From NCBI GenBank assembly GCA_030167865.1, contig JALAGF010000383.1:1-64000 (forward strand): a stretch of 64,000 bases of DNA. The letters run 5' to 3'. The stretch comes from Craspedostauros australis. Lineage: Eukaryota. Under the pieces are notes generated by a model. It worked only from the letters and a program-made list of their open reading frames with translations. It was not told the origin of the DNA and did no database searches. Of this stretch, positions 50,228 through 64,000 are shown one piece after another (positions within the stretch are counted from its first letter, which is position 1; each line of letters opens with the position of its first letter). A program made the translations under genes and the position numbers.

Positions 50228-50702
50228 AGTCTGCATATGGACAGATAAGGTGGTCGAGTATAATATAATATTATGGATGGCCATTATACATTATGTAGTC
50301 CATAGTCTCTGGAGATTACAATACTTGTCGATGATCCATGCTCTCTTGTGTGTGTGCGAGACAGAGAGAGAGCATCTTGTGAGCTGCCAGCAGAGAGTTG
50401 TGCTGGTGTCAAGAATGCAAGGCTAGAGAATGAAGTCTAGAGACCCGTCTGATTCCATTTGACACCACGAAACAGCCAACAAAAACGCAAACCCATTCAC
50501 GATCGCACTCGCTGAGCTCACTTGATGATGTTCGCCAATCGATCGAAGCAACCAGCAGCCATCCATACTCTGCTCTATTATCACACTTCCGCATCCTTCC
50601 ATTCCGGGTGCACTGCTGGCGCATACCAGCCCGCTGCACGAGCATACAGCACAGCACAACACAGTACAACACATTTGCAGTGTCCGGATTGGACGACGAA
50701 GC

Positions 50703-53700
50703 ATGACGGATGCGCTAGTGCGCGACTTCGTGCGAGAGCAGCGAGAGCTGCTGGGATTGGAGCTGGAATCGGAGCAGACACTCGAGAAGGAGGTGGCGCA
50801 GTCCTCCCATCAGCTGTCCGCGGCCGCTGGCTCTGATCGGGAGCGTGTGGCATCTCACGTGCTGGGGAGTTTGGAGGCCTCGGATGTGTCGATTGGATTG
50901 TACGGGCGCACCGTGGTGGAACTGGTCGTGCATCACGCGTCTGCGGATGCATCGCAAGGCGCGCCGAATGGCAGCACGGCCCAGGCGGCTGCAGCTCCAT
51001 CGCAGCTGCTGCTGCCCGCGCATCGCTTCACGGTTGGCGATGAAGTGGAAATCCGCACAAAGCAGAATCGCAAGGGCTCACCGGGAGGCGTCATCAGCGC
51101 AGTCACGGACACCGCCATTTCTGTGGCGCTGTTTGGTCAAAAGACGAGATCTTCCAACAACAGCAATGGCAACAGCAACAGCAAGAACGGCAACAACCAT
51201 GATGGCAGAAACAACGACGACGACGATGTGGAATCAGAGTTGGGCGACCCTCCGCTGCGGCTGATTCCCAAGAGCTCCGTCGAGGTTCATCGCAAATTGA
51301 TGCACGGGTTGAATGATTTGGAACGGCACGGCGCGAATCATGAACTTTGCGGCCCAGTCATCGAGGCGTGCTTCAACCCGCGACCCAGCAGCACACGCCA
51401 AGCGAAGTCGCAACCGGCAGAACGCAATCGTAACACGCCGATCCAGAAGTTCAATGCCGACCTCGATGCAAGCCAGGTGGAGGCCATTCAATTTGCGCTG
51501 GATGATGAGCAGAGGATATCCTTGATCCACGGTCCACCGGGAACGGGCAAGACGACCACGGTGGCGGAGCTGATCCGGCATGCCGTGCATGTGCGTGGCA
51601 TGAAGGTGCTGGTCACGGCACCCAGCAACGTGGCCGTCGACAACGTCCTTGAGCGCCTTGTGGCGTCTGCCACTCCCAGTACCGCGCAAAAACGCAAGAA
51701 TGCCAAGCGCACATCCTTGCGCGCAGTCCGTCTGGGGCATCCAGCAAGGATCAAACCCACAATCCTGTCGTACAGCTTGGAAGCACTGGTGCAATCGGCC
51801 GACGGCACCGAGATCGTCAACGATGTGCGCAAGGAGCTCAAGTCTTACATCCGAGTCCTTTCCAATCCAAAAAGTCGCGGCAACGAAAAACGGGTGGCGT
51901 ACCGCGAGATGAAGGCCCTTCGCAAGGAGGTCCGAACGCGAGAGGAGAAGGTCGTGCGGGAACTTATCGGAGGTGCGCAGGTGGTCCTGGCCACGACGGT
52001 CGGTGCCGCGAATCGCATGCTCAATCATGTGGAGGGTGGATTTGATCTGGTCGTCATCGACGAAGCCGCGCAGGCGTTGGAAGCATCATGCTGGATTCCG
52101 ATGCTGCGTGGCAAGAAGGTCGTCCTGGCCGGAGATCATCGTCAGCTGCCGCCAACCATCAAGAGCCGCAGTCACAAGGCGCAGGCAGGTCTTGCCAAGA
52201 CCCTGTTCGAACGCCTGATGGAGCTGTACGGGGATGACAAGAAACCGGAGGTTCCTCGCATTTCGAGAATGCTCAAGGTGCAGTACCGCATGCATCGCCA
52301 AATCGCGGACTGGGCCAGCACGGCGATGTATGGTGGGGAACTATCGACCCACCCGAGCGTCGAGACGAGGCTGCTGTCGCAGCTGGGTTCCATCAAGGAA
52401 ACCCAAGACGCAGGCACAGACGCTGGCGAAACTGAAGGCAATAACGAGAGTCGCATGCAACACGAGCTGAACAGCGACGATGTGGAACTGCTGGGCACGA
52501 CCATGATGCTGGTGGACACGGCCGGGTGTGACATGCACGACACGACCAACGATGCCGGCTCCAGATTTAACGAAGGCGAAGCGAAGATAGTAGATCGCCA
52601 TGTGCGCCGCCTGTTGTCGTTCGGGATGAAGCAAGCCGATGTGGCGATCATCACGCCGTACAACGGTCAGGTGGAATTGCTTCGCAACATGCTCCTTCCG
52701 GAGTACCCCTCGCTGGAGATCCGCAGCGTCGATGGATTCCAAGGTGGCGAGAGGGAAGCCGTGGTGCTCAGCCTCGTTCGAAGCAGCGAAAGAGGTGGGA
52801 TCGACGGCATTGGCTTCCTCAAGGACGATCGTCGTCAGAATGTGGCAGTGACGCGCGCGAAACGACATGTGGCTGTCGTCTGCGATTCGGAGACTGTGAG
52901 CAAGAGCAAGTTCATTGCGAGTCTGTTGGCGTGGATTGAGGAGCATGGACAACAGCGATCAGCGATCGAGTACCTTGCTGCCGTGGAATCGTCGTTCGAT
53001 GCGGACTTTGAAGCGGACATGCAGAACGCAGAGGCTGAGATCGAGAAGATGATGAAGGGGCCCGACCAGAACGCAGACAGTCCTGCAAATACCAACGCTA
53101 AAGGAGAAAACAAGGTGGCAACGAAGAACCAGCCGAAGCATGTGCACTCGCATAGCGCGCAGTCTAAGAATCAGCAGCGAAACAAGGAGAACGATCTGAA
53201 GCAGACGCAGCAACAGCGAAAGCAGGAAGATGAACTGCTCAAGAATCAGTTGCAAGAATCCAAACGCAAGGCCTTGCTGGACAAGATCTCGGCTTTCAAC
53301 GAATCCGCGCAGCCCGGTGACAGCCTGCCCTTGAGTTCGGAGCTGAACGGATACGAACGACGTCTCGTGCATGAATTTTGCGAACAGCTCGGCTTGACGC
53401 ATGTCAGCTCAGGGACCGAAGGCGTGGATCGACGCATCGTCATCGGCAAGGAAGCAAAAGGAGTTGCTGCGGAAAGCAACGCCACCATTTCTTCCATCAA
53501 TTCGCTATCAGGAGGCTTGCAGACGCGAGCAGAGCAACAGAATGATGCCACGCTTGGTCTGCATGAAAACAATGATGACGGGACGCCAACGAAGTCTGCG
53601 TTTGCAACCTTGGCGCTGGATGACGATGACGATGACGACAGCAGCAGCAGCAGCAGCAGCAGCGATGAGAAAGAGAGTGACCCGGACGCGCCTGTCACAG

Positions 53701-54161
53701 CTACGGGCGCCTCGTTGCTCGCCCAACTGGCAATAGAACGCAGACAACGCGAAAGCGCGAGATTGGAACAGCAGAACCAAGCAGCTGCCGCATCCGCTGA
53801 TCGATCTGGAGCGGGAATGTCCAAGAGCCAGAAGAAGAAAAACAAGAAGAAGGGCGGTCAGAAGCTCGGTGGTTCTCGTAAACCGACCCACCCTCCGACG
53901 CAGGATGACAGCCACCTTGACGATCTGGATGACATGGCATTCCTCGATACTCAGATTGAGAGGTCACAGAATGCGCATGGTCGAAAGGTGGTCGGCGCGG
54001 GGAAGGGGTACAGAACGATCATCAATGGCGTGCTGAACGCCAAGCCCGCTCCACGCGAACCTCCCAAGAATGCGAAGGCGGCTGCATCGCTCCAGGCCAA
54101 ACTGAAGAGCGCACAGAATGGGAGGAAGACCAAGGGAGGTGGCAAGAAGAAAAAGAAGTAG
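50703..54161 (+). CDS. IGHMBP2: SF1 Upf1-like helicase, IGHMBP2/SMUBP-2 (Hcs1) type, with R3H domain
   Basis: Helicase motifs IHGPPGTGKTTT, APSNVAVDN, VRLGHPARI, DEAAQ, GDHRQLPP, QYRM, ITPYNGQV, VDGFQGGE and NVAVTRAK. R3H motif ERRLVHEFCEQLGLTHVS. Confidence 0.9.
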   Translation: MTDALVRDFVREQRELLGLELESEQTLEKEVAQSSHQLSAAAGSDRERVASHVLGSLEASDVSIGLYGRTVVELVVHHASADASQGAPNGSTAQAAAAPSQLLLPAHRFTVGDEVEIRTKQNRKGSPGGVISAVTDTAISVALFGQKTRSSNNSNGNSNSKNGNNHDGRNNDDDDVESELGDPPLRLIPKSSVEVHRKLMHGLNDLERHGANHELCGPVIEACFNPRPSSTRQAKSQPAERNRNTPIQKFNADLDASQVEAIQFALDDEQRISLIHGPPGTGKTTTVAELIRHAVHVRGMKVLVTAPSNVAVDNVLERLVASATPSTAQKRKNAKRTSLRAVRLGHPARIKPTILSYSLEALVQSADGTEIVNDVRKELKSYIRVLSNPKSRGNEKRVAYREMKALRKEVRTREEKVVRELIGGAQVVLATTVGAANRMLNHVEGGFDLVVIDEAAQALEASCWIPMLRGKKVVLAGDHRQLPPTIKSRSHKAQAGLAKTLFERLMELYGDDKKPEVPRISRMLKVQYRMHRQIADWASTAMYGGELSTHPSVETRLLSQLGSIKETQDAGTDAGETEGNNESRMQHELNSDDVELLGTTMMLVDTAGCDMHDTTNDAGSRFNEGEAKIVDRHVRRLLSFGMKQADVAIITPYNGQVELLRNMLLPEYPSLEIRSVDGFQGGEREAVVLSLVRSSERGGIDGIGFLKDDRRQNVAVTRAKRHVAVVCDSETVSKSKFIASLLAWIEEHGQQRSAIEYLAAVESSFDADFEADMQNAEAEIEKMMKGPDQNADSPANTNAKGENKVATKNQPKHVHSHSAQSKNQQRNKENDLKQTQQQRKQEDELLKNQLQESKRKALLDKISAFNESAQPGDSLPLSSELNGYERRLVHEFCEQLGLTHVSSGTEGVDRRIVIGKEAKGVAAESNATISSINSLSGGLQTRAEQQNDATLGLHENNDDGTPTKSAFATLALDDDDDDDSSSSSSSSDEKESDPDAPVTATGASLLAQLAIERRQRESARLEQQNQAAAASADRSGAGMSKSQKKKNKKKGGQKLGGSRKPTHPPTQDDSHLDDLDDMAFLDTQIERSQNAHGRKVVGAGKGYRTIINGVLNAKPAPREPPKNAKAAASLQAKLKSAQNGRKTKGGGKKKKK

Positions 54162-54743: not shown

Positions 54744-57300
54744 ATGAAGATCCAAGTTCCATCCGCCGCGTTCGCCCTGATGGCAGCCTCCGCTGCGATC
54801 GTCTCGCCCGGCAGCGCCTTCGTCCCATCCTCGCTGGCGCCAAGGTCATCCGGGGCAGAGGCGGCAACCGGGGGCGTCGGGAAGGCCCGGTTCTCCCTGG
54901 AGCTGAACGTCGCCACCGACCCACCGGCAACCAAAAGTCCCATCGACCCGAAGGCAGCCATCGCCGTTCCACCCAAACTCGCCCAGCGATGGCGAAAGAG
55001 CACGAAGCAGCTCGTGACGCTCGGCCCGTCGTCCTCCAGTTTGGAAATGATCGAACGTCTCTTCTTGGCGGGTGCCGACGTCTTCCGTCTCAACTTCTCG
55101 CACGGGTCGCAAGAGCAGAAGAAGGAACTCCTGGATGTCATCCGATCCGTCGAGGCCAAGTACTCCCATCCCATCTGCGCGTTGGGAGATTTGCAGGGAC
55201 CGAAGTTGCGGGTGAGCATGATCCTGTCGATGGATGTTGCGTTGTGCTGATGCCTGGTCTGCGTGTTGCGACATTCGTGCGATATCGTCAGCCGCACGTC
55301 CAGATTCGTCCTGTCTGGCTGGTGGCTTGCGGACAGGCTGCTTGTGAATTGCTTGTGAATCGCTCGAGCATCTGTTATCCCATAGAGCACGGCGATTTCG
55401 AGACGTAGCCAGCATCCAGCATTCATGCTCCAATACTCATTCGCACTCATCTCCATTCTCTCAATCGATCGTTCACCGACTAACTCAACCACCGGCCGTC
55501 TCACCAACTTGAACATTGACGCATTGATACATTGATACATGGCACATTAATGAATTGACCCGCTGCCGTTGCGCATTCACCACGAAGGTCGGAGAATTCT
55601 CCAGCCCAACCGGCGAGTACCTCGAGGAGGGCCAGACATTTCGCCTTGATCTGGATTCTGCGATGGGCGACAGCACCCGCGTGCAGCTGCCTCACCCAGA
55701 AATCATCAAGGCGTCCGAGGTTGGCCACACTCTCATGGTGGATGACGGAAAGGTGAAGCTCACTGTCACCGCCAAAGGTGACGATTTCCTGGAATGCATC
55801 GTCAACGTGCCTGGAAAGATCAGCAACCGCAAGGGCGTCAACACGCCGGATTCCATCCTCAAGATCTCGCCCCTCACCGCCAAGGATCGTTCCGATCTGG
55901 ACTACATGCTCGAAATTGGCGTCGACTGGGTGGCCCTTTCCTTCGTCCAACGTCCAGAGGATATTGAGGAAATCCGCGCCATCATCGACGAGCGCATCCC
56001 ACCCTCCAGCGGGAGATTCCAGCCCAGCGTCATGGCCAAGATCGAGAAGCCATCCTGTTTCGAGGGCGACAACCTCGAACGCATCGTCGACCTCTGCGAT
56101 GGCATCATGGTGGCGCGCGGGGACCTGGGCGTCGAATGCCCGCCTGAAGACGTCCCCATCCTGCAAAAGACCATCATCGATGAATGTCGTAAGCAGGGAC
56201 GCCCGGTCGTCGTCGCCACCCAGATGCTCGAATCCATGATCGAAAGTCCCACGCCCACTCGTGCTGAGGCCAGTGATGTCGCGACAGCCATATACGATGG
56301 TGCAGATGCCATCATGCTTAGTGCCGAATCGGCGGCTGGAAAGGTAAGTTCATTCATTGAGGCCATGATAGTGGCACTTTCCTGGTGTTCTCTCTCTCTC
56401 TCTCTTGCTATTCGTTGCAATCCTATTTCAACGTGGAAGGCTCTTGCATGCCAGTATGTATTACACATCCAATCCATTGAACTGGAGATGGTGTGGTCTT
56501 GTTTGGTCTAATCCATCTCGCAATCTCAAACTCACCGACAAGTTCACTGTTGCCTTCCATCATAAACCTATGGCGTAAAATACACCGCATGTACGATCAT
56601 CTCCTACTGTCATACTCGTGAAATACGCACCCTATTCATACTCTCTTGGGTCCTCAATCTACATGCTATGACGCACACATGAACACATGCACACACCCAC
56701 ATGCGCACTTTTCTTCTGCTCGTGTGTCTTCCGTAGTACCCGGAAGAGTCCGTCGCGATGCAACAGCGCATCATCAACCGCGTGGAAGGGGATCCGCATT
56801 ATCGCAATTACTTGAATTCGTTCGACCAGATCCCGGATGACACCCCCACGGAAGCCTTGATCGTCGCAGCACGCCAAATCTCGCAATCCATCCAGGCCAA
56901 GTGCATCGCCACGTTCAGTTTGCGTGGTTCCACCGTGCTGAAGGCATCTAAATTCCGACCCACCACGCCCATCATGGCCATCTGCCCGTTCGTCGAAAAG
57001 GCTCGTCAGCTCACCTTGGCATGGGGCGTGTATCCTGATCTGCCCACCACGCAGTTTGGTTTCAATGGGATCGTGGACTACGACGACAACGAAGGTGACG
57101 ACGAAGAAACTGGCATGACAGCAGATGGATTGCCCACAAATGACTTGGACTTGGTCATGCGCAATGCTTGTCGAGCTGCGTTGAAGAAGGGCTTGGTCAA
57201 TGATGCCAACGATGCCATCGTTGTGACCGCTGGATTGCCATTCAATAGTCCAGGTGTTGCCAACATGCTGCGCATAACTTGTCCATCAGACTTTCGTTGA
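54744..57300 (+). CDS. PK: Pyruvate kinase, plastid-targeted; exons 54744-55211, 55588-56343, 56737-57300 (~595 aa)
   Basis: Motifs [86 protein letters not shown]. Signal peptide plus GSAFVP bipartite motif. GT-AG introns at 55212-55587 and 56344-56736. Confidence 0.95.
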
Positions 57301-57588
57301 AGTCAGACATAGATGAATACTCGTACGCAAGTACTCGTGGTGCGCACGAGCACAAATAATCCCAAATAAGCGAGAAAGCGGCAAGGACACTAAGGAGCAA
57401 CTGAACGAAGAAATGGAGAAGCATGGAAGCAACATGTTTGCAAGAAAGAAGGCAACGAGCGTAAGCGCGGAGACATCATTGGTTTTGATTGGAACTGTGT
57501 GAAGCGTAATATCATCCATTGCATTATATGAAACATTGCATGATTCTCTAAATTACATTCTGGGGCAGGGGTGCTGTTCGTCTCGTCA

Positions 57589-60500
57589 CTATCCAGTTTT
57601 GTGTGTGCGGACCGTCTTCCAGTTCTTCTCCACCCAGTGTCTGCTAGTCACCTCCACCAAGTAGCGGAGGTTGATTCGTTTCACGTCGTTCACCACGTAT
57701 TCGTTGTAGTGGACACATCCCTGGTTGCCACCATCGTACCGGGTCAGTTTGATTTCCCGTGTGAGGTGCTCTGGTAGTTCTTCCTCGTCGTCCTCATCGT
57801 CTTCGTCGCCGCTTCCGTCCTCTCCATCTACCATCGCGTTGTTGCTATCGGCATCGGCATCCTCGTCGTCTCCGTCGTTGTCGTCGTTCTTTCGCCGCCT
57901 CTTTTTGTCGTTGCCGGCAGCTCCCTTCTTCCCTCTTTTCTTGCTGCCGCTCTTCTCGTCGTCGTCGCCATCATCGTCCTCTTTCGCGAGATCCTTTTGT
58001 TTGATGATGGGGATGAGTTTGGCGGTGCTGGAGAAAGGACCGTCCGAGAGCACAGCCGTGTACGCTCTACCTTTATATTCGACGCCTATCTTCACAGGGA
58101 ATATGGAATCCTTTGACGACCTTGCATTCTCAATAGCCTCCGATACTTTGGGGAAGTTGTCGTCATCAAAATCGAACTCCACCCACTTGATCGTGGTGGC
58201 GCGCTTGGGATTGGGTGACGTCTTGCCCAGCGGGAAGACCGTCCCGGACTTGAACACAGTGTCATGGGTGACGTCCGGACCTTCCTGCCCCAACGCGAAG
58301 ACGCTGTCTGCATCGATCTTTGTTTCACCCCAATTGGCCTCGGTCACCACTCCCTGATCTCCCAGCGCAACATCTGCAAGGAAGAAGTAGGCTCGCGGCA
58401 TGGTCCTCGCGCCGCTGTCCAAGTGCGCGCGGCAGTATCCGAAGGATTTCTGCGCCATGTCAGCGAAGTACACACCATCACCAAACGCATTGCCGGCGAT
58501 TTCGGCTGTCGATGGCGCGATGCGAAGACCCTCCCTGATGATCCCCAGCACGTTGGCGTTGCTCGTGCCGTGCCACAACAACCTGCGATTCCCCATCTCT
58601 CTGTTGCTGGATTCGCTGTTCCGGCGCATCTCGAACACTTGGCTAACGACGAGACCTTCGGCAGAGCTGATGGTGTTGCGGAAGTATTGTTCCACTCCAA
58701 CCCTTTCGGTTTCTTTGACCGACATGGGGCGTATGCTGGCGTTCAAGGCTCTGTAGATGTAGTCGAGCGGGTGGACCAGAGAAGCATTGGAGTTTGCGAG
58801 CATGAGCAGTTGGGTGGAGACGGCGAGATCCTTGAGCTGCGATATGACGTTGCGCTGTTCCTTCAGGGTTTCATCTGTGAGCGGTTCCAGCGCGTCGTCG
58901 CCCTCCTTCGTTGGCAGGAGCTCGTAGTACTCCCCCGACAACAGAGCGACGTCATCCATGGCCTCGCGCTTCTCCTTCAGCTGTTCGGGCTTGTCAAGTT
59001 TTTCGACCTTGTCCAGTGCCGCAGCGATGGCGTCCAGCTTCTCGGCCGCCGCCAGGACCATTCGGATGGAGATGCGTCCCAACGGGCACTGATCTTGTTG
59101 CAACCCAAGCTCGTTGGCACTTCTGTTCATTTCCGCGCGATCCGCCAAAGTGACCAGCGTGTCCCTGATCACCGAGCTCAACAGCGACTCCGTGCCACTA
59201 TCGGTTGCCTTCTTCACGAGCGATGTGATGCTGGGAAGCTTGGGCTGTTCATAGTTGCTCCCGAGGAGGTTGATCGTCTTGTACTTCCCAAACTTCGGCT
59301 TGAACTTGCCCGCCAGGTAGTCGTCGAAGGTGTTGCCGCTCTTGGCCTTGAAGACCTTGCAGAACTCAGCCACCGCCTCCTTCCGGACTCCGTACGGTGT
59401 TTCCTGCTTCTGTCCACCGTAGTCGCCTGTTTGCCCCCAGTTCGTCAGGAGAACAAAGAGCTTCTTGATGGGGTCCTCGACGATTTGCATCTTGTAGTAC
59501 TTGTTCTCTGAGATTCCATAGTGGTGCAGCTCCACCTTGGTGGTGGTGATCGTGAAGAAGGCCCTGCTTGTATCCGAAACCACAGCACCCGGAATGTCTT
59601 CGTCGGTGAAGGGTAGGACCCGGATGAGGCGGCCCTTCAGTTCGCAGCAAGGGTTGACCTTTGGCGCGAAATCATCCTTCTTCTTCATAAGCCCGCTCGT
59701 TTCCATCTCCACGAGGGCCTTCTGGACTTCGACCTCCAGCTCATCATCAGAGATCGGTTTCAGGTCTGAGACTGATGCAGACTGTGCTGCTGTGCGTGAC
59801 GAAGTGGGCCCAGATGCATTGTCGGTAGCAACATCGGCATCGCCGCCTCCCTCGGCTGGAGACATGGGCACATCTAAGCCGCCGAGCTCAGCCAGCTTGG
59901 CATGGAACTGACTGCCCGCCCTGCATTTCGCGAGCATCTCCTCGCTCACAACAGCACCGTGCTTGCAAAGGAGTTCCGCCGCTTCCATGTTCTCGTAAGA
60001 TCCGAATTTGACGGGAGCCACAACATACTCGAGAGCCGTCCTTCCGCTACCATCCTTCATTTCCAGCAGCCGGGCGGCCCTGGACTTCTGCTTCGTCTTC
60101 GCCGCCTTTTTCTTCTTCTTCTTCGCCCCTGTCCTTCCCGTGCCGCCAGAAGCGTCGGTCGCCCACAAGCCTGGCGTCGCCTTCCAAGGTCTGATCTGCT
60201 GACGAAGGACGTTCGTCACCAGCGGACCGCGCAAGGTTTGCAAGTCGTAGGTTCCGTTCTTGTAGCATTTCACAACCCTTGCCTCGCACCATGGTTTCAA
60301 CGCTGACGCGTAATCCTTGCCGTCGCCACTTCGCTGGAAGATGACGTAGGACCCTTCCGGCAGAGGTTTGGTGAGGTGTTCATCGTGCAACCCAACTGCG
60401 ATGTGCTCTGCACCAAAGACATGCTTCAGCCTCCGCCGCGCCTCGTTGCGGGAAGCATCGTCGTTGTACCTCGGGATCTGTGCCCAGCGTACTCCGTTCG

Positions 60501-63500
60501 AGGGTGAGTACGAGCCGCCACGGGCATTCCACAGGACGGCAAAATGGAGGAGACTATCCAGGTGCTTCGATGACACGTCGTATCCAGCCACGATTTTTGA
60601 CGCAGGCACCTGCTGTTTGTCGGCAAGAACTGCATTTTTGCCTTTGTCAGCGATGCTCGCGGGGTACAAGGTGACATCGTTGGAAAATCGCAGCAGAAGA
60701 CGATGACCCTCGAGCGTCTTGGACTTGGAATCCAGCTTCAAGTCGTCACCGCGACTTGCAACTGCCTCGAGAATTGAGGCCATGAGTGTGGCACGATTTT
60801 GCTGGCAGGCGTGGTGCATGATGGTCATGCCCCTCCCAAGACACGGCTTCTCCACGTCTGCGCCGGAGCGCAGCAGCAGATGGAAGATGTCATGACGATT
60901 GTTGACGATGCTCATGATCAAGGGCGTCAAACCTTGCTCGTTGTCAACGGCCAGGTCGAGGTCAGCACCATTCCGAACGAGGAATTCGACGGTTTTCTGG
61001 CAGCCTCTGGAGACGCCATGGTGGAGCGCTGACATGCCGCTTGAGTCGAGGAGATCGATCAGAGCACCCTTGTCAATCAAGTACTGGGCAAGGTCGAAGT
61101 TGCCAGACTGCAACGCCAAGATGATTAACGTCGAGTGGCGCACCTCCTGTCGCTTTTCGCCCTCTTCTGAAGCGGCCTGCACCATGGCTTCGCTGTTCTG
61201 TTTCTTTGCCAATGCTTCCGCCTTTTTCAGCTCGTTGATAACTGATGCCACATTGGGGCCAGGAGCAAATTCGATTTTGCCGTAGCCATGCCCACCAAGG
61301 TTTCCCTTCCTATCATTGGTGCTCGCCTGGCTGTCTTCGTCGCTGTCCTGATCACTGTCATCATCACTGCAGTCGTCGTCGTCGTCGGTGTCGTTCAGGG
61401 CGTGGTCTCTCTCCCCAGCGCCAGTACTGTTTGCGACACTCGGTTTCTTGGGACTTGTCTGGGCGACGGATAAGACGGATGTGACGACCTTGTTAACCTT
61501 CACCGATGTCAGGTCGTGCTCGGTGGGAGCAAGCGTTCGGAACAATGCCAAGATGCTCTCGCTGTTCCCACGGTTCAACATTGATGTCATGTAGATGCTC
61601 AGAGGAAATCTCCCCGCATTGTCAGCCACATTGACTGCGTTGCGGAAGTTGGCAACGAGGTAAGTGATGAGAGGCTTGTGCTGGTTGAGAATAGCATAAT
61701 GCAACGGGAGTTTGCCATCAGCATCAACCCCCGTTGCTTTCACGTCTGCTTCGACCAGAAGTTCAGCCAACGTCGTGCTCCATCGATGGTCGCTGTACCT
61801 CTTGACGCGGCAAACCTCGTGCAGAAGAGACCTCTTCGTCGCCATGTCGATGTGGCGCACAACATCCAACGAACTGGTCGTGAGGAGCTTGCGCACGAGC
61901 TGGAAGGACTCGTTGCTCAATGCGTCGACACAAGCCGTGTGCAACGGGAAGGATGTGTCCAGCAGAATGTACACCAAACCATTGAAGCGGGATTTGATGG
62001 CATGCCACACGATGGATTGGATCTGCCTGCTGACCTCCGTTACCTTCTTCTCTTTCGTCCCTGGCTTGATCGTGACTGTGCGACGCACATCCGTGACATC
62101 AACCAGCGGCGGCAGCGCGTCCGATCCCTGGCTCTTGAGCATGGTGATGATGTAATTTTCGTGCCCGCGGAGGACCGCGATGTTGGCAGCGGTGTTGGAG
62201 TCGTTGTCTTGGTGGAAGAGATCCGCCTTCTTCGAGAGGAGGAGCAAACTTGAGACGGTGGAGTTGTATGCCGCCGCGTACAATAGAGGCGTGCGTCCAT
62301 GGTTGTCGGCGATGGACACGCTCTTGTCGGCACCTTTGGCCGCCAGGAGAGCGCTGACGAGATCGACTCTGTCGTGAGTCGTCGACGAGAGACAATGCGG
62401 AAAGTTCCAATGATCCATCGAAGATGCATGTTCGAGAAAGCAGTAATGCAAGGGCGTTCTGTTGCGCGAGTCGACAATATCCAGCCGCGCACCAGCTCTC
62501 ATGAAGAGCGCCTCGCATGGCTCCAGAGCCTCCTCCCGACGTGCTGTTGCCTTCTCGACACTGAAATGGAATGCCGTTCTGCCTGAGGAATCCTTCCTGT
62601 TGATTTCTCTGGTGACCAGATCATTCACATCGTCATCTGTCCTATCCTTGACGGAACCGGTGGTGGCCTGACTTGTCGCTGCATGCTTCGATATGAACCG
62701 CAGCACCAACTTGACCAGCCTCGCGTTGTCCTTCTTGGCGGCGATGTGAATCGGCAACTCCCCTTCCAAATTCGCTTGTGTTATTAACGACAGATAATTG
62801 TCCGTCATGTAGGTCACGAGCTGGTCGTCCTGCCGACGGAGCGCAATGTGCAGCGCTGTGTCTCCTGTCGAGGAGCTCTGGGCGCAAAGGTCCAAACCAA
62901 AGTCATCACGCAGCTTTTGCCACGCGCTTCTGGGGATGAATTCGCAATTCGCAAGAATCTTCACCAGCGGTTCTGTGTCGTTTGTCTGGTTGTTGTTCCT
63001 CCGCGCGCTGTTGCTGGAGCTACTGCCAGCACTGTTGCCATTCGCAGATTTGCGGCGACTCTTCAGACGATTCTGTCTTTGTGACATGATGTCACGAAAG
63101 TGCTTCACGACGCTGACCCCGACATCCTCTTTCTTCGAATCGAGGAATTCGGTGGCAAGCTGCACCATCTTCTTGACTTGCTCTGTATCATCCACCTTCT
63201 TTGCATCTGAGCCTTCATCATCTGCATCTGCATTTGCATTTGCAGCTGCGTTGGTGGAGCCGCTGCCACCACCATCGTCGCCGCCATCGCCTGCCGTCAC
63301 ATCAGCCATGTCATCATCCGCGTTGTCGACAGCATCGTCTCGTGGGACAGTGTTGATGTCATGTGATCCTGCATCGACGAACATTTGCAGCACCTCGAAG
63401 AAGTGGTCGTAACATTGCGCGATTTGTCTTCGAAGGTTCACATGCTTTGCGACGTTTCGAGGCAGCATTCTGTGTGTCAGCACCTGCATCGGCGTCAAGG

Positions 63501-64000
63501 GAAAGCCGTCGCACGGTGCCTTGCTGTTCACCTGGTCCTTGCACAACGGAAGAAGCCATTCCATCATTTGCTTGGTTCTCTGCGGTCGCTCATCGAAGCA
63601 GGTGATATGCAGCAAGGTTTGTCCAACGTCATTCCCGCCAAAGGCGACAGCCTGGTCGTATGTTTCCAGCACATTTCGGATCCTCGACGCATCGATGATG
63701 TCTTTGCCTGTGACCAATAGGGGCGACTGCGAGTGCGACTGTGAGTGGTGCCAGCCATGGCGCGTGTTGCGTGATGTCTCCGCACGTTTGTCAGCCTGGA
63801 CTTCAGCCAGGACGGGGCATAAGAACTCGGGATCATGGAACAAGGGAACCTCGTCGATGGGCTGTGTCGCCAGTTGTGGATGCTTGGTAAGGACACCTTT
63901 GACACAAGTCATGGATTTTTCCCACATAGGGTCGGCCACGTTGCAATTCGCCATGTACTGCACAGCCATGTGCAACGGAGAGCGACCCATCGCATCCAAT
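57589..64000 (-). CDS. Large poly(ADP-ribose) polymerase: ankyrin repeats - Tudor/Agenet-like - WGR - PARP regulatory - PARP catalytic (5' end beyond the window)
   Basis: Many ankyrin repeats (GRSPLHMA, GDTALHIA, GRTPLLYAA, GMSALHHG, GLTPLIMS). WGR-like NKYYKMQI...NWGQTG...EFCKVFKAKSGN. Regulatory PLGRIS...LSGEYYELLP. Catalytic LLWHGT, GLRIAP, FGDGVYFADMAQKSFGYC and YNEYVV. Confidence 0.93.
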   Translation of the reverse strand, partial: LDAMGRSPLHMAVQYMANCNVADPMWEKSMTCVKGVLTKHPQLATQPIDEVPLFHDPEFLCPVLAEVQADKRAETSRNTRHGWHHSQSHSQSPLLVTGKDIIDASRIRNVLETYDQAVAFGGNDVGQTLLHITCFDERPQRTKQMMEWLLPLCKDQVNSKAPCDGFPLTPMQVLTHRMLPRNVAKHVNLRRQIAQCYDHFFEVLQMFVDAGSHDINTVPRDDAVDNADDDMADVTAGDGGDDGGGSGSTNAAANANADADDEGSDAKKVDDTEQVKKMVQLATEFLDSKKEDVGVSVVKHFRDIMSQRQNRLKSRRKSANGNSAGSSSSNSARRNNNQTNDTEPLVKILANCEFIPRSAWQKLRDDFGLDLCAQSSSTGDTALHIALRRQDDQLVTYMTDNYLSLITQANLEGELPIHIAAKKDNARLVKLVLRFISKHAATSQATTGSVKDRTDDDVNDLVTREINRKDSSGRTAFHFSVEKATARREEALEPCEALFMRAGARLDIVDSRNRTPLHYCFLEHASSMDHWNFPHCLSSTTHDRVDLVSALLAAKGADKSVSIADNHGRTPLLYAAAYNSTVSSLLLLSKKADLFHQDNDSNTAANIAVLRGHENYIITMLKSQGSDALPPLVDVTDVRRTVTIKPGTKEKKVTEVSRQIQSIVWHAIKSRFNGLVYILLDTSFPLHTACVDALSNESFQLVRKLLTTSSLDVVRHIDMATKRSLLHEVCRVKRYSDHRWSTTLAELLVEADVKATGVDADGKLPLHYAILNQHKPLITYLVANFRNAVNVADNAGRFPLSIYMTSMLNRGNSESILALFRTLAPTEHDLTSVKVNKVVTSVLSVAQTSPKKPSVANSTGAGERDHALNDTDDDDDCSDDDSDQDSDEDSQASTNDRKGNLGGHGYGKIEFAPGPNVASVINELKKAEALAKKQNSEAMVQAASEEGEKRQEVRHSTLIILALQSGNFDLAQYLIDKGALIDLLDSSGMSALHHGVSRGCQKTVEFLVRNGADLDLAVDNEQGLTPLIMSIVNNRHDIFHLLLRSGADVEKPCLGRGMTIMHHACQQNRATLMASILEAVASRGDDLKLDSKSKTLEGHRLLLRFSNDVTLYPASIADKGKNAVLADKQQVPASKIVAGYDVSSKHLDSLLHFAVLWNARGGSYSPSNGVRWAQIPRYNDDASRNEARRRLKHVFGAEHIAVGLHDEHLTKPLPEGSYVIFQRSGDGKDYASALKPWCEARVVKCYKNGTYDLQTLRGPLVTNVLRQQIRPWKATPGLWATDASGGTGRTGAKKKKKKAAKTKQKSRAARLLEMKDGSGRTALEYVVAPVKFGSYENMEAAELLCKHGAVVSEEMLAKCRAGSQFHAKLAELGGLDVPMSPAEGGGDADVATDNASGPTSSRTAAQSASVSDLKPISDDELEVEVQKALVEMETSGLMKKKDDFAPKVNPCCELKGRLIRVLPFTDEDIPGAVVSDTSRAFFTITTTKVELHHYGISENKYYKMQIVEDPIKKLFVLLTNWGQTGDYGGQKQETPYGVRKEAVAEFCKVFKAKSGNTFDDYLAGKFKPKFGKYKTINLLGSNYEQPKLPSITSLVKKATDSGTESLLSSVIRDTLVTLADRAEMNRSANELGLQQDQCPLGRISIRMVLAAAEKLDAIAAALDKVEKLDKPEQLKEKREAMDDVALLSGEYYELLPTKEGDDALEPLTDETLKEQRNVISQLKDLAVSTQLLMLANSNASLVHPLDYIYRALNASIRPMSVKETERVGVEQYFRNTISSAEGLVVSQVFEMRRNSESSNREMGNRRLLWHGTSNANVLGIIREGLRIAPSTAEIAGNAFGDGVYFADMAQKSFGYCRAHLDSGARTMPRAYFFLADVALGDQGVVTEANWGETKIDADSVFALGQEGPDVTHDTVFKSGTVFPLGKTSPNPKRATTIKWVEFDFDDDNFPKVSEAIENARSSKDSIFPVKIGVEYKGRAYTAVLSDGPFSSTAKLIPIIKQKDLAKEDDDGDDDEKSGSKKRGKKGAAGNDKKRRRKNDDNDGDDEDADADSNNAMVDGEDGSGDEDDEDDEEELPEHLTREIKLTRYDGGNQGCVHYNEYVVNDVKRINLRYLVEVTSRHWVEKNWKTVRTHKTG

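Follow-up and report, generated by a model that had tools for sequence, protein, structure and literature searches.

What kind of domain occupies the acceptor loop of a poly(ADP-ribose) polymerase (PARP) in the diatom Craspedostauros australis, immediately before the catalytic Glu, and could it bind poly(ADP-ribose) (PAR) at that position? The question is raised by the window analysed here, a stretch of 64,000 nucleotides comprising positions 1 to 64,000 of contig JALAGF010000383.1 (assembly GCA_030167865.1), in which the ADP-ribosyltransferase (ART) domain of a minus-strand PARP gene is interrupted by a 172-residue insertion (57709..58224) identified from the open frame, phmmer and anchor spacing. 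A preliminary description of this DNA had placed about 170 residues between VFPLG and YNEY, and counting agrees: read on the minus strand, the last base of VFPLG is 58225 and YNEY opens with its Tyr codon at 57708, so that 172 codons (58224-57709) separate them in a single open frame. The peptides it quoted, the D/E-rich tract, KKRGKK (57942-57925), KKRRRK (57906-57889) and TREIKLTR (57762-57739) are likewise all present.

The equivalent stretch of PARP1 had been put at about a dozen residues, and by phmmer it measures 13 residues from PLG to YNEY in chicken PARP1 (1a26), against 172 in the query; phmmer aligns 1a26 up to residue 320 and resumes at 325, and the Pfam PARP model matches the query in two stretches flanking the gap. 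The catalytic His and Glu are 290 aa apart in the query, whereas among the 132 proteins with both anchors (of 165 retrieved and examined) the spacing is 114-147 aa in 93 and at least 200 in 34. An insert of the same kind lies at the same site in 28 other proteins, including those of Cylindrotheca, Seminavis, Ditylum and Hondaea, a protein labelled Epithemia, and one from EukProt CFRG0569T1, a prefix which we take to denote Creolimax. Because 27 further proteins in the alignment keep its folded part, one Trp and one Pro being invariant, the insertion is confirmed to be far beyond chance. It is also supported as coding rather than intronic, as the preliminary description had assumed, since the Ditylum proteins, which derive from MMETSP transcripts, retain it and since a contig from a probable RNA run shows neither difference nor joint over 57300-58014, a span that takes in the entire acidic loop; this second line is weak, the contig being unstranded and perhaps derived from a convergent pyruvate kinase gene.

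Within the insertion, a conserved folded part and a variable tract can be distinguished. The main part of the WWE-like domain (58006..58191, minus strand), delimited by AlphaFold2, conservation and structure matches, contains an invariant Trp (58185), a helix with a conserved Glu (58131), the motif R.DP.T.FP and three strands. AlphaFold2, run on the insert alone with an alignment of 28 sequences, predicts a helix at 29-41 and strands at 49-55, 58-64 and 72-77 as one block with a predicted local distance difference test (pLDDT) score of 91-97; insert residues 1-32 were misaligned in the input and the model is unreliable there. A further strand at 163-166 (EIKL; block pLDDT 83) follows beyond a low-confidence acidic stretch, in agreement with the earlier proposal that the last strand is set apart by a charged loop; it belongs to TREIKLTR (57739..57762, minus strand), which carries the conserved Arg (57741). 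The intervening loop, delimited by AlphaFold2 and alignment (57766..58002, minus strand), has 79 residues, of which 33 are D/E and 15 K/R, so that it is net acidic, and holds two clusters resembling a nuclear localisation signal (NLS; 57942-57925 and 57906-57889) that may act as such. The last two strands lie 12 to 98 aa apart across 28 proteins, and the loop sequence also varies widely.

Conservation, in an alignment of 28 rows (the query and 27 others), is concentrated in the folded part: Trp and Pro are present in 28/28, Glu in 27/28 and the last Arg in 26/28 (Lys in the other two), and in the family motif R.DP.T.FP the R is kept in 24, D in 17, and T/S, F/Y and P each in 28 of 28. Median identity to the query is 26% for the folded insert, 42-45% for the ART domain and 30% for the helical domain. 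A C-terminal extension, E[VIL]TSxxWL, probably helical (57610..57654, minus strand), accompanies the insert, following the ART domain in 24 of 28 proteins with the core insert, in none of 94 others and in none of the four of oomycete type.

That this folded domain is a WWE fold is the likeliest choice, no single test being decisive. When the AlphaFold2 model was used for a structure search, six distinct WWE proteins ranked among the 50 best matches, their alignments spanning the loop and most of the domain; this makes WWE the best family-level structural match. Profile comparison with canonical WWE domains scored above all controls, yet weakly (P 0.004-0.01, probability 2-8%); the insert family was shifted toward WWE relative to shuffles, and controls were beaten in both profile directions. 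None of 24 inserts reached the Pfam WWE (PF02825) cut-off and the query locus gave no match to it, nor did a profile search of the PDB with the insert return a WWE match. As for the WWE signature, the first Trp is found in 28/28, Glu in 27/28 and a distinct second Trp, canonically spaced, in 5/28, the query lacking the latter. The claim of a WWE-like fold in the acceptor loop thus stands as regards a folded domain there, with WWE its likeliest identity, and falls short of a decisive assignment; WWE ancestry may be regarded as quite probable.

In a tree of the region preceding the insert, built from retrieved hits only with the ADPRT3 and PME-5 references left out, the carriers form one group (29 rows, SH 0.999), which was repeated in sampled trees (10/10 sampled rows, Shimodaira-Hasegawa-like approximate likelihood ratio test 98-99); the insertion dates from the ancestor of a protist subfamily, in which it was then retained. 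Six oomycete proteins adjoin this group, with joint support of 0.977 in the first tree and 89 in one of the sampled trees, the other leaving the pairing unresolved. These ankyrin-PARPs (P0013, P0087, P0091, P0102, P0118 and P0160, from Aphanomyces, Achlya, Saprolegnia and Pythium) carry longer and different-looking inserts of 138-150 residues at the same site, which share with the core type an initial Trp and helix and are devoid of the acidic tract; neither profile matched them above controls. Two further ankyrin/WGR PARPs with same-site inserts, P0072 and P0112, lie outside the core clade and group with insert-less proteins, and a single origin of all inserts including these two is not rejected (approximately unbiased test, p 0.11). 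The P0072 insert scores as WWE (E 0.0018), the protein also having a PBZ-like match (E 0.0003), and that of P0112 is 203 residues long with W.W and LE motifs.

In Seminavis robusta (CAB9519785.1, P0028), the same hairpin loop of the WWE-like insert carries a nested, Pfam-positive WWE (residues 3078-3145, E 4e-11), giving three levels of insertion, WWE in WWE-like insert in ART. The nested copy retains the Gln and Arg missing from the outer domain and, because it is 65-74% identical to WWE domains of unrelated proteins, is read as a separate, later arrival. The C. australis genome itself is rich in potential WWE donors: a WWE precedes an ART on seven contigs, in the same open frame on six. Four contigs (C2855, C3558, C3559 and C4322) share a tandem-WWE frame of equal length (782 aa) and scores, through either recent repetition or duplication in the assembly. 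Within the clade, P0011 (EukProt CFRG0569T1) and P0032 (labelled Epithemia) fall in a subgroup with good support, separate from the remaining named diatom proteins, possibly through horizontal transfer, hidden paralogy or contamination; P0067 retains the insert with its catalytic His replaced by Tyr, and P0028 (3284-3330) and P0034 (906-949) bear a C-terminal KOW domain of SPT5 type after the ART domain.

The proposal that the insert is a PAR reader fares less well. In solved WWE complexes, adenine is bound by a Gln and stacks on a Trp or Tyr, and phosphate is bound by a Tyr and an Arg (PMC11269756). These roles were transferred to alignment columns through our own alignment of a canonical set and the RNF146 numbering. 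The Gln is present in 14/14 and the Arg in 12/14 canonical domains; in the insert family the stacking aromatic occurs in 0/28, Gln in 0/28 in either register, the phosphate-binding Tyr in 8/28 (query included) and Arg/Lys in 1/28, the query having Ile, while the structural Trp, Glu and final Arg are kept together with the family-specific R.DP.T.FP. Judged from these residues, the inserted domain appears to have no nucleotide pocket, and canonical PAR reading is unlikely because the pocket residues are absent or unconserved and pocket-less WWEs are known, namely PARP13 WWE1 and the PARP14 WWE, degenerate domains without PAR binding (PMC9720839; PMC10450202). By sequence, the insert would be a pseudo-WWE like those two.

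The enzyme around the insert is a Clade-1A (Clade 1-ank) PARP, a type defined by ankyrin, WGR, regulatory and catalytic domains without SAM (PMC2964712; PMC4245714). Its open frame runs on the minus strand from 57589 past the window to contig position 67764 (3,391 codons from stop to stop; 3,312 aa from the first Met at contig position 67527), so that the window holds the 3' two-thirds of the gene (57589..64000; Pfam, one open frame). Pfam places, all on the minus strand, ankyrin repeats at 60952..63999 (Ank_2, E 2e-43, seven stretches), continuing upstream of the window in the same frame (Ank_2, E 2e-47), a WGR domain at 59320..59511 (E 8e-13) and the PARP regulatory, or helical, domain at 58753..59181 (PARP_reg, E 2e-12); together with phmmer, it places the N-terminal part of the ART domain at 58225..58698, with the triad His (58572-58570) and Tyr (58470-58468), and its C-terminal strands at 57655..57711, with the catalytic Glu (57702-57700). 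Aligned to chicken PARP1 (1a26), the H-Y-E triad is complete, the Tyr being kept in 29/29 clade members. No SAM domain is among the Pfam matches of the query, and a tankyrase (Clade 4) is ruled out by this together with the presence of WGR and PARP_reg. The nearest named homologues are diatom proteins, from Cylindrotheca, a Bacillariaceae metagenome-assembled genome and Seminavis.

Between the ankyrin repeats and WGR, a beta-rich segment (60190-60370, minus strand) with NG.YDV.L..G kept across the clade is possibly a Tudor-like domain; Pfam has no match there in the query and gives an Agenet match (E 0.004) in P0046. On the plus strand, Pfam identifies a helicase of SMUBP-2/IGHMBP2 type with an R3H domain (50529-54161) and the pyruvate kinase gene convergent with the PARP gene (54745-57300), whose two apparent introns and signal-peptide-like start were judged by eye. 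Elsewhere among the retrieved proteins, P0030 has an N-terminal VPS9 domain and RCC1 repeats, and P0178 and P0179 combine WWE, a region named uracil DNA glycosylase by a source and a C-terminal ART domain (PF01129).

Compared with described Clade 1A enzymes (Dictyostelium ADPRT3, C. elegans PME-5 and Saprolegnia), the query shares the domain order, the absence of SAM and the H-Y-E triad, but its ART domain is split before the catalytic Glu and followed by E[VIL]TSxxWL, neither of which is mentioned in the accessible parts of those descriptions (PMC2964712; PMC4245714); most retrieved ankyrin-PARPs likewise have an ordinary short loop. WWE and ART also share one chain in PARP7, 11, 12, 13 and 14 and in plant RCD1, and a model of PARP7 has a C-terminal piece packed between the two (PMC10450202; PMC9720839). 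Those proteins, however, belong to Clades 2 and 3 and have WWE before an intact ART domain, without WGR or helical domain, whereas here the WWE-like domain lies inside a Clade 1 ART. Against canonical PAR-binding WWEs (RNF146, TRIP12, HUWE1 and DTX1), the insert shares the predicted helix-plus-half-barrel order, the Trp, the Glu and the final Arg, but has lost the pocket residues and mostly the second Trp, gained FP and GP motifs, expanded the hairpin loop to as much as about 90 residues and fallen below Pfam detection. In the split KH domains of PARP9/10/14 and the split RWD of PARP6/8, the last element is similarly set apart by a long insertion, either disordered or containing a domain, and nested domains occur (PMC10450202); human splits affect accessory domains, while in the query the catalytic domain itself is interrupted, and so in turn is the insert. 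Both the WWE-before-ART order and the splitting of accessory domains are thus described already (PMC10450202). No domain, WWE or otherwise, was found within the acceptor loop of an ART in the literature searched, a scope that excludes most subscription journals and survey alignments: term look-ups in the accessible parts of PMC2964712, PMC4245714 and a 2026 preprint on fungal PARPs (10.64898/2026.07.25.740670) returned no mention, a Phytophthora PARP paper (PMC11766942) gave no term match, and PMC9145170 was irrelevant. The architecture is real and conserved and, relative to the known WWE-before-ART order, a domain within the acceptor loop appears new.

As to function, target preference has been proposed to depend on the acceptor loop, the variable wall of the acceptor site, and PARP3, which lacks the M890 equivalent, yields shorter products (PMC3868897). 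The query keeps the equivalents of PARP1 K903, Y907 and E988, has Ala for M890 and has H826 within a deletion; M890 is Met in 4/29 clade members, compared with 64/117 insert-less PARPs. The domain that entered the acceptor loop in the ancestor of the protist subfamily was probably a WWE; it was kept but lost its nucleotide pocket, and the resulting pseudo-WWE beside the catalytic Glu most likely serves for docking or gating. Partners would be recruited by the ankyrin repeats, protein or nucleic-acid acceptors would be delivered by ankyrin and WGR domains, and the insert with its co-occurring C-terminal helix would choose which acceptor reaches the NAD+ site, the product being mono- or short-chain ADP-ribose. 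The hairpin loop seemingly tolerates any passenger, here an acidic tract with NLS-like clusters (possibly an import signal, a basic-protein trap or an auto-modification site) and in Seminavis a second WWE. Taken whole, this account of a Clade-1A PARP with a docking or gating pseudo-WWE is the one we favour, at a confidence just short of even.

Other readings draw on the same data. If the WWE-derived domain were now a structural plug only, sealing the loop, resting against the C-terminal helix and bearing the acidic/NLS tract without any role in substrate choice, this would suit the predominance of core-type residues among the most conserved (W, P, L, I, G, A), a folded-insert identity lower than in ART and close to that in the helical domain, and the C-terminal motif that accompanies the insert; this reading is rather unlikely, given that the domain is retained across distant lineages, that conserved charged surface residues after the helix (R, D, T) suggest a binding surface, and that reverting to a short loop by deletion would be easier. 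A small alpha+beta domain unrelated to WWE, its W...S..IE...R pattern and topology convergent or generic, is improbable if worth keeping in mind, facing the WWE proteins among the structure matches aligned across the loop, profile scores above controls in both directions, W-W-E spacing in some members and the WWE-scoring P0072 insert at the same site. An intron or assembly artefact, whether it accounts for the entire insert or for its acidic part, is extremely improbable: the length is by construction divisible by three and the insert contains three weak GT donors (58070, 57831, 57739), but protein-level conservation in 28 homologues, the MMETSP proteins and the unbroken RNA-run contig all oppose it.

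A working PAR or ADP-ribose reader, holding a growing chain or primed substrate through a remodelled pocket or basic surface and so affecting processivity or product feedback, gains from the position of the insert beside the acceptor site (PMC3868897), the conserved surface motif R.DP.T.FP, the phosphate-binding Tyr kept in the query, the renewed insertion of a Pfam-positive WWE into the loop of the Seminavis insert and the more canonical WWE of P0072. It is nonetheless distinctly unlikely in view of the absence or poor conservation of pocket residues that canonical domains keep, the acidic loop, which would repel PAR, and the precedent of degenerate WWEs. A broader version, in which the ankyrin-PARP acceptor loop is a repeated WWE landing site (core clade, oomycete type, P0072/P0112 and the nested Seminavis WWE) and ADP-ribose or primed substrate is read at the enzyme's own catalytic Glu, is a long shot; if true, a built-in reader-writer active site would replace an accessory factor and set target choice or chain length.

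For the diatoms, first reported as lacking PARPs (PMC4245714), the finding adds a PARP type, and for the family it offers a graded series from a WWE-scoring insert through a pocket-less insert to a doubly nested one. Were the domain a mere plug, the finding would be an architectural curiosity. A whole domain in the acceptor loop makes the proposal that this loop sets target preference directly testable, and an ART fold that tolerates a domain graft beside its catalytic Glu is useful for engineering target-directed ADP-ribosyltransferases.
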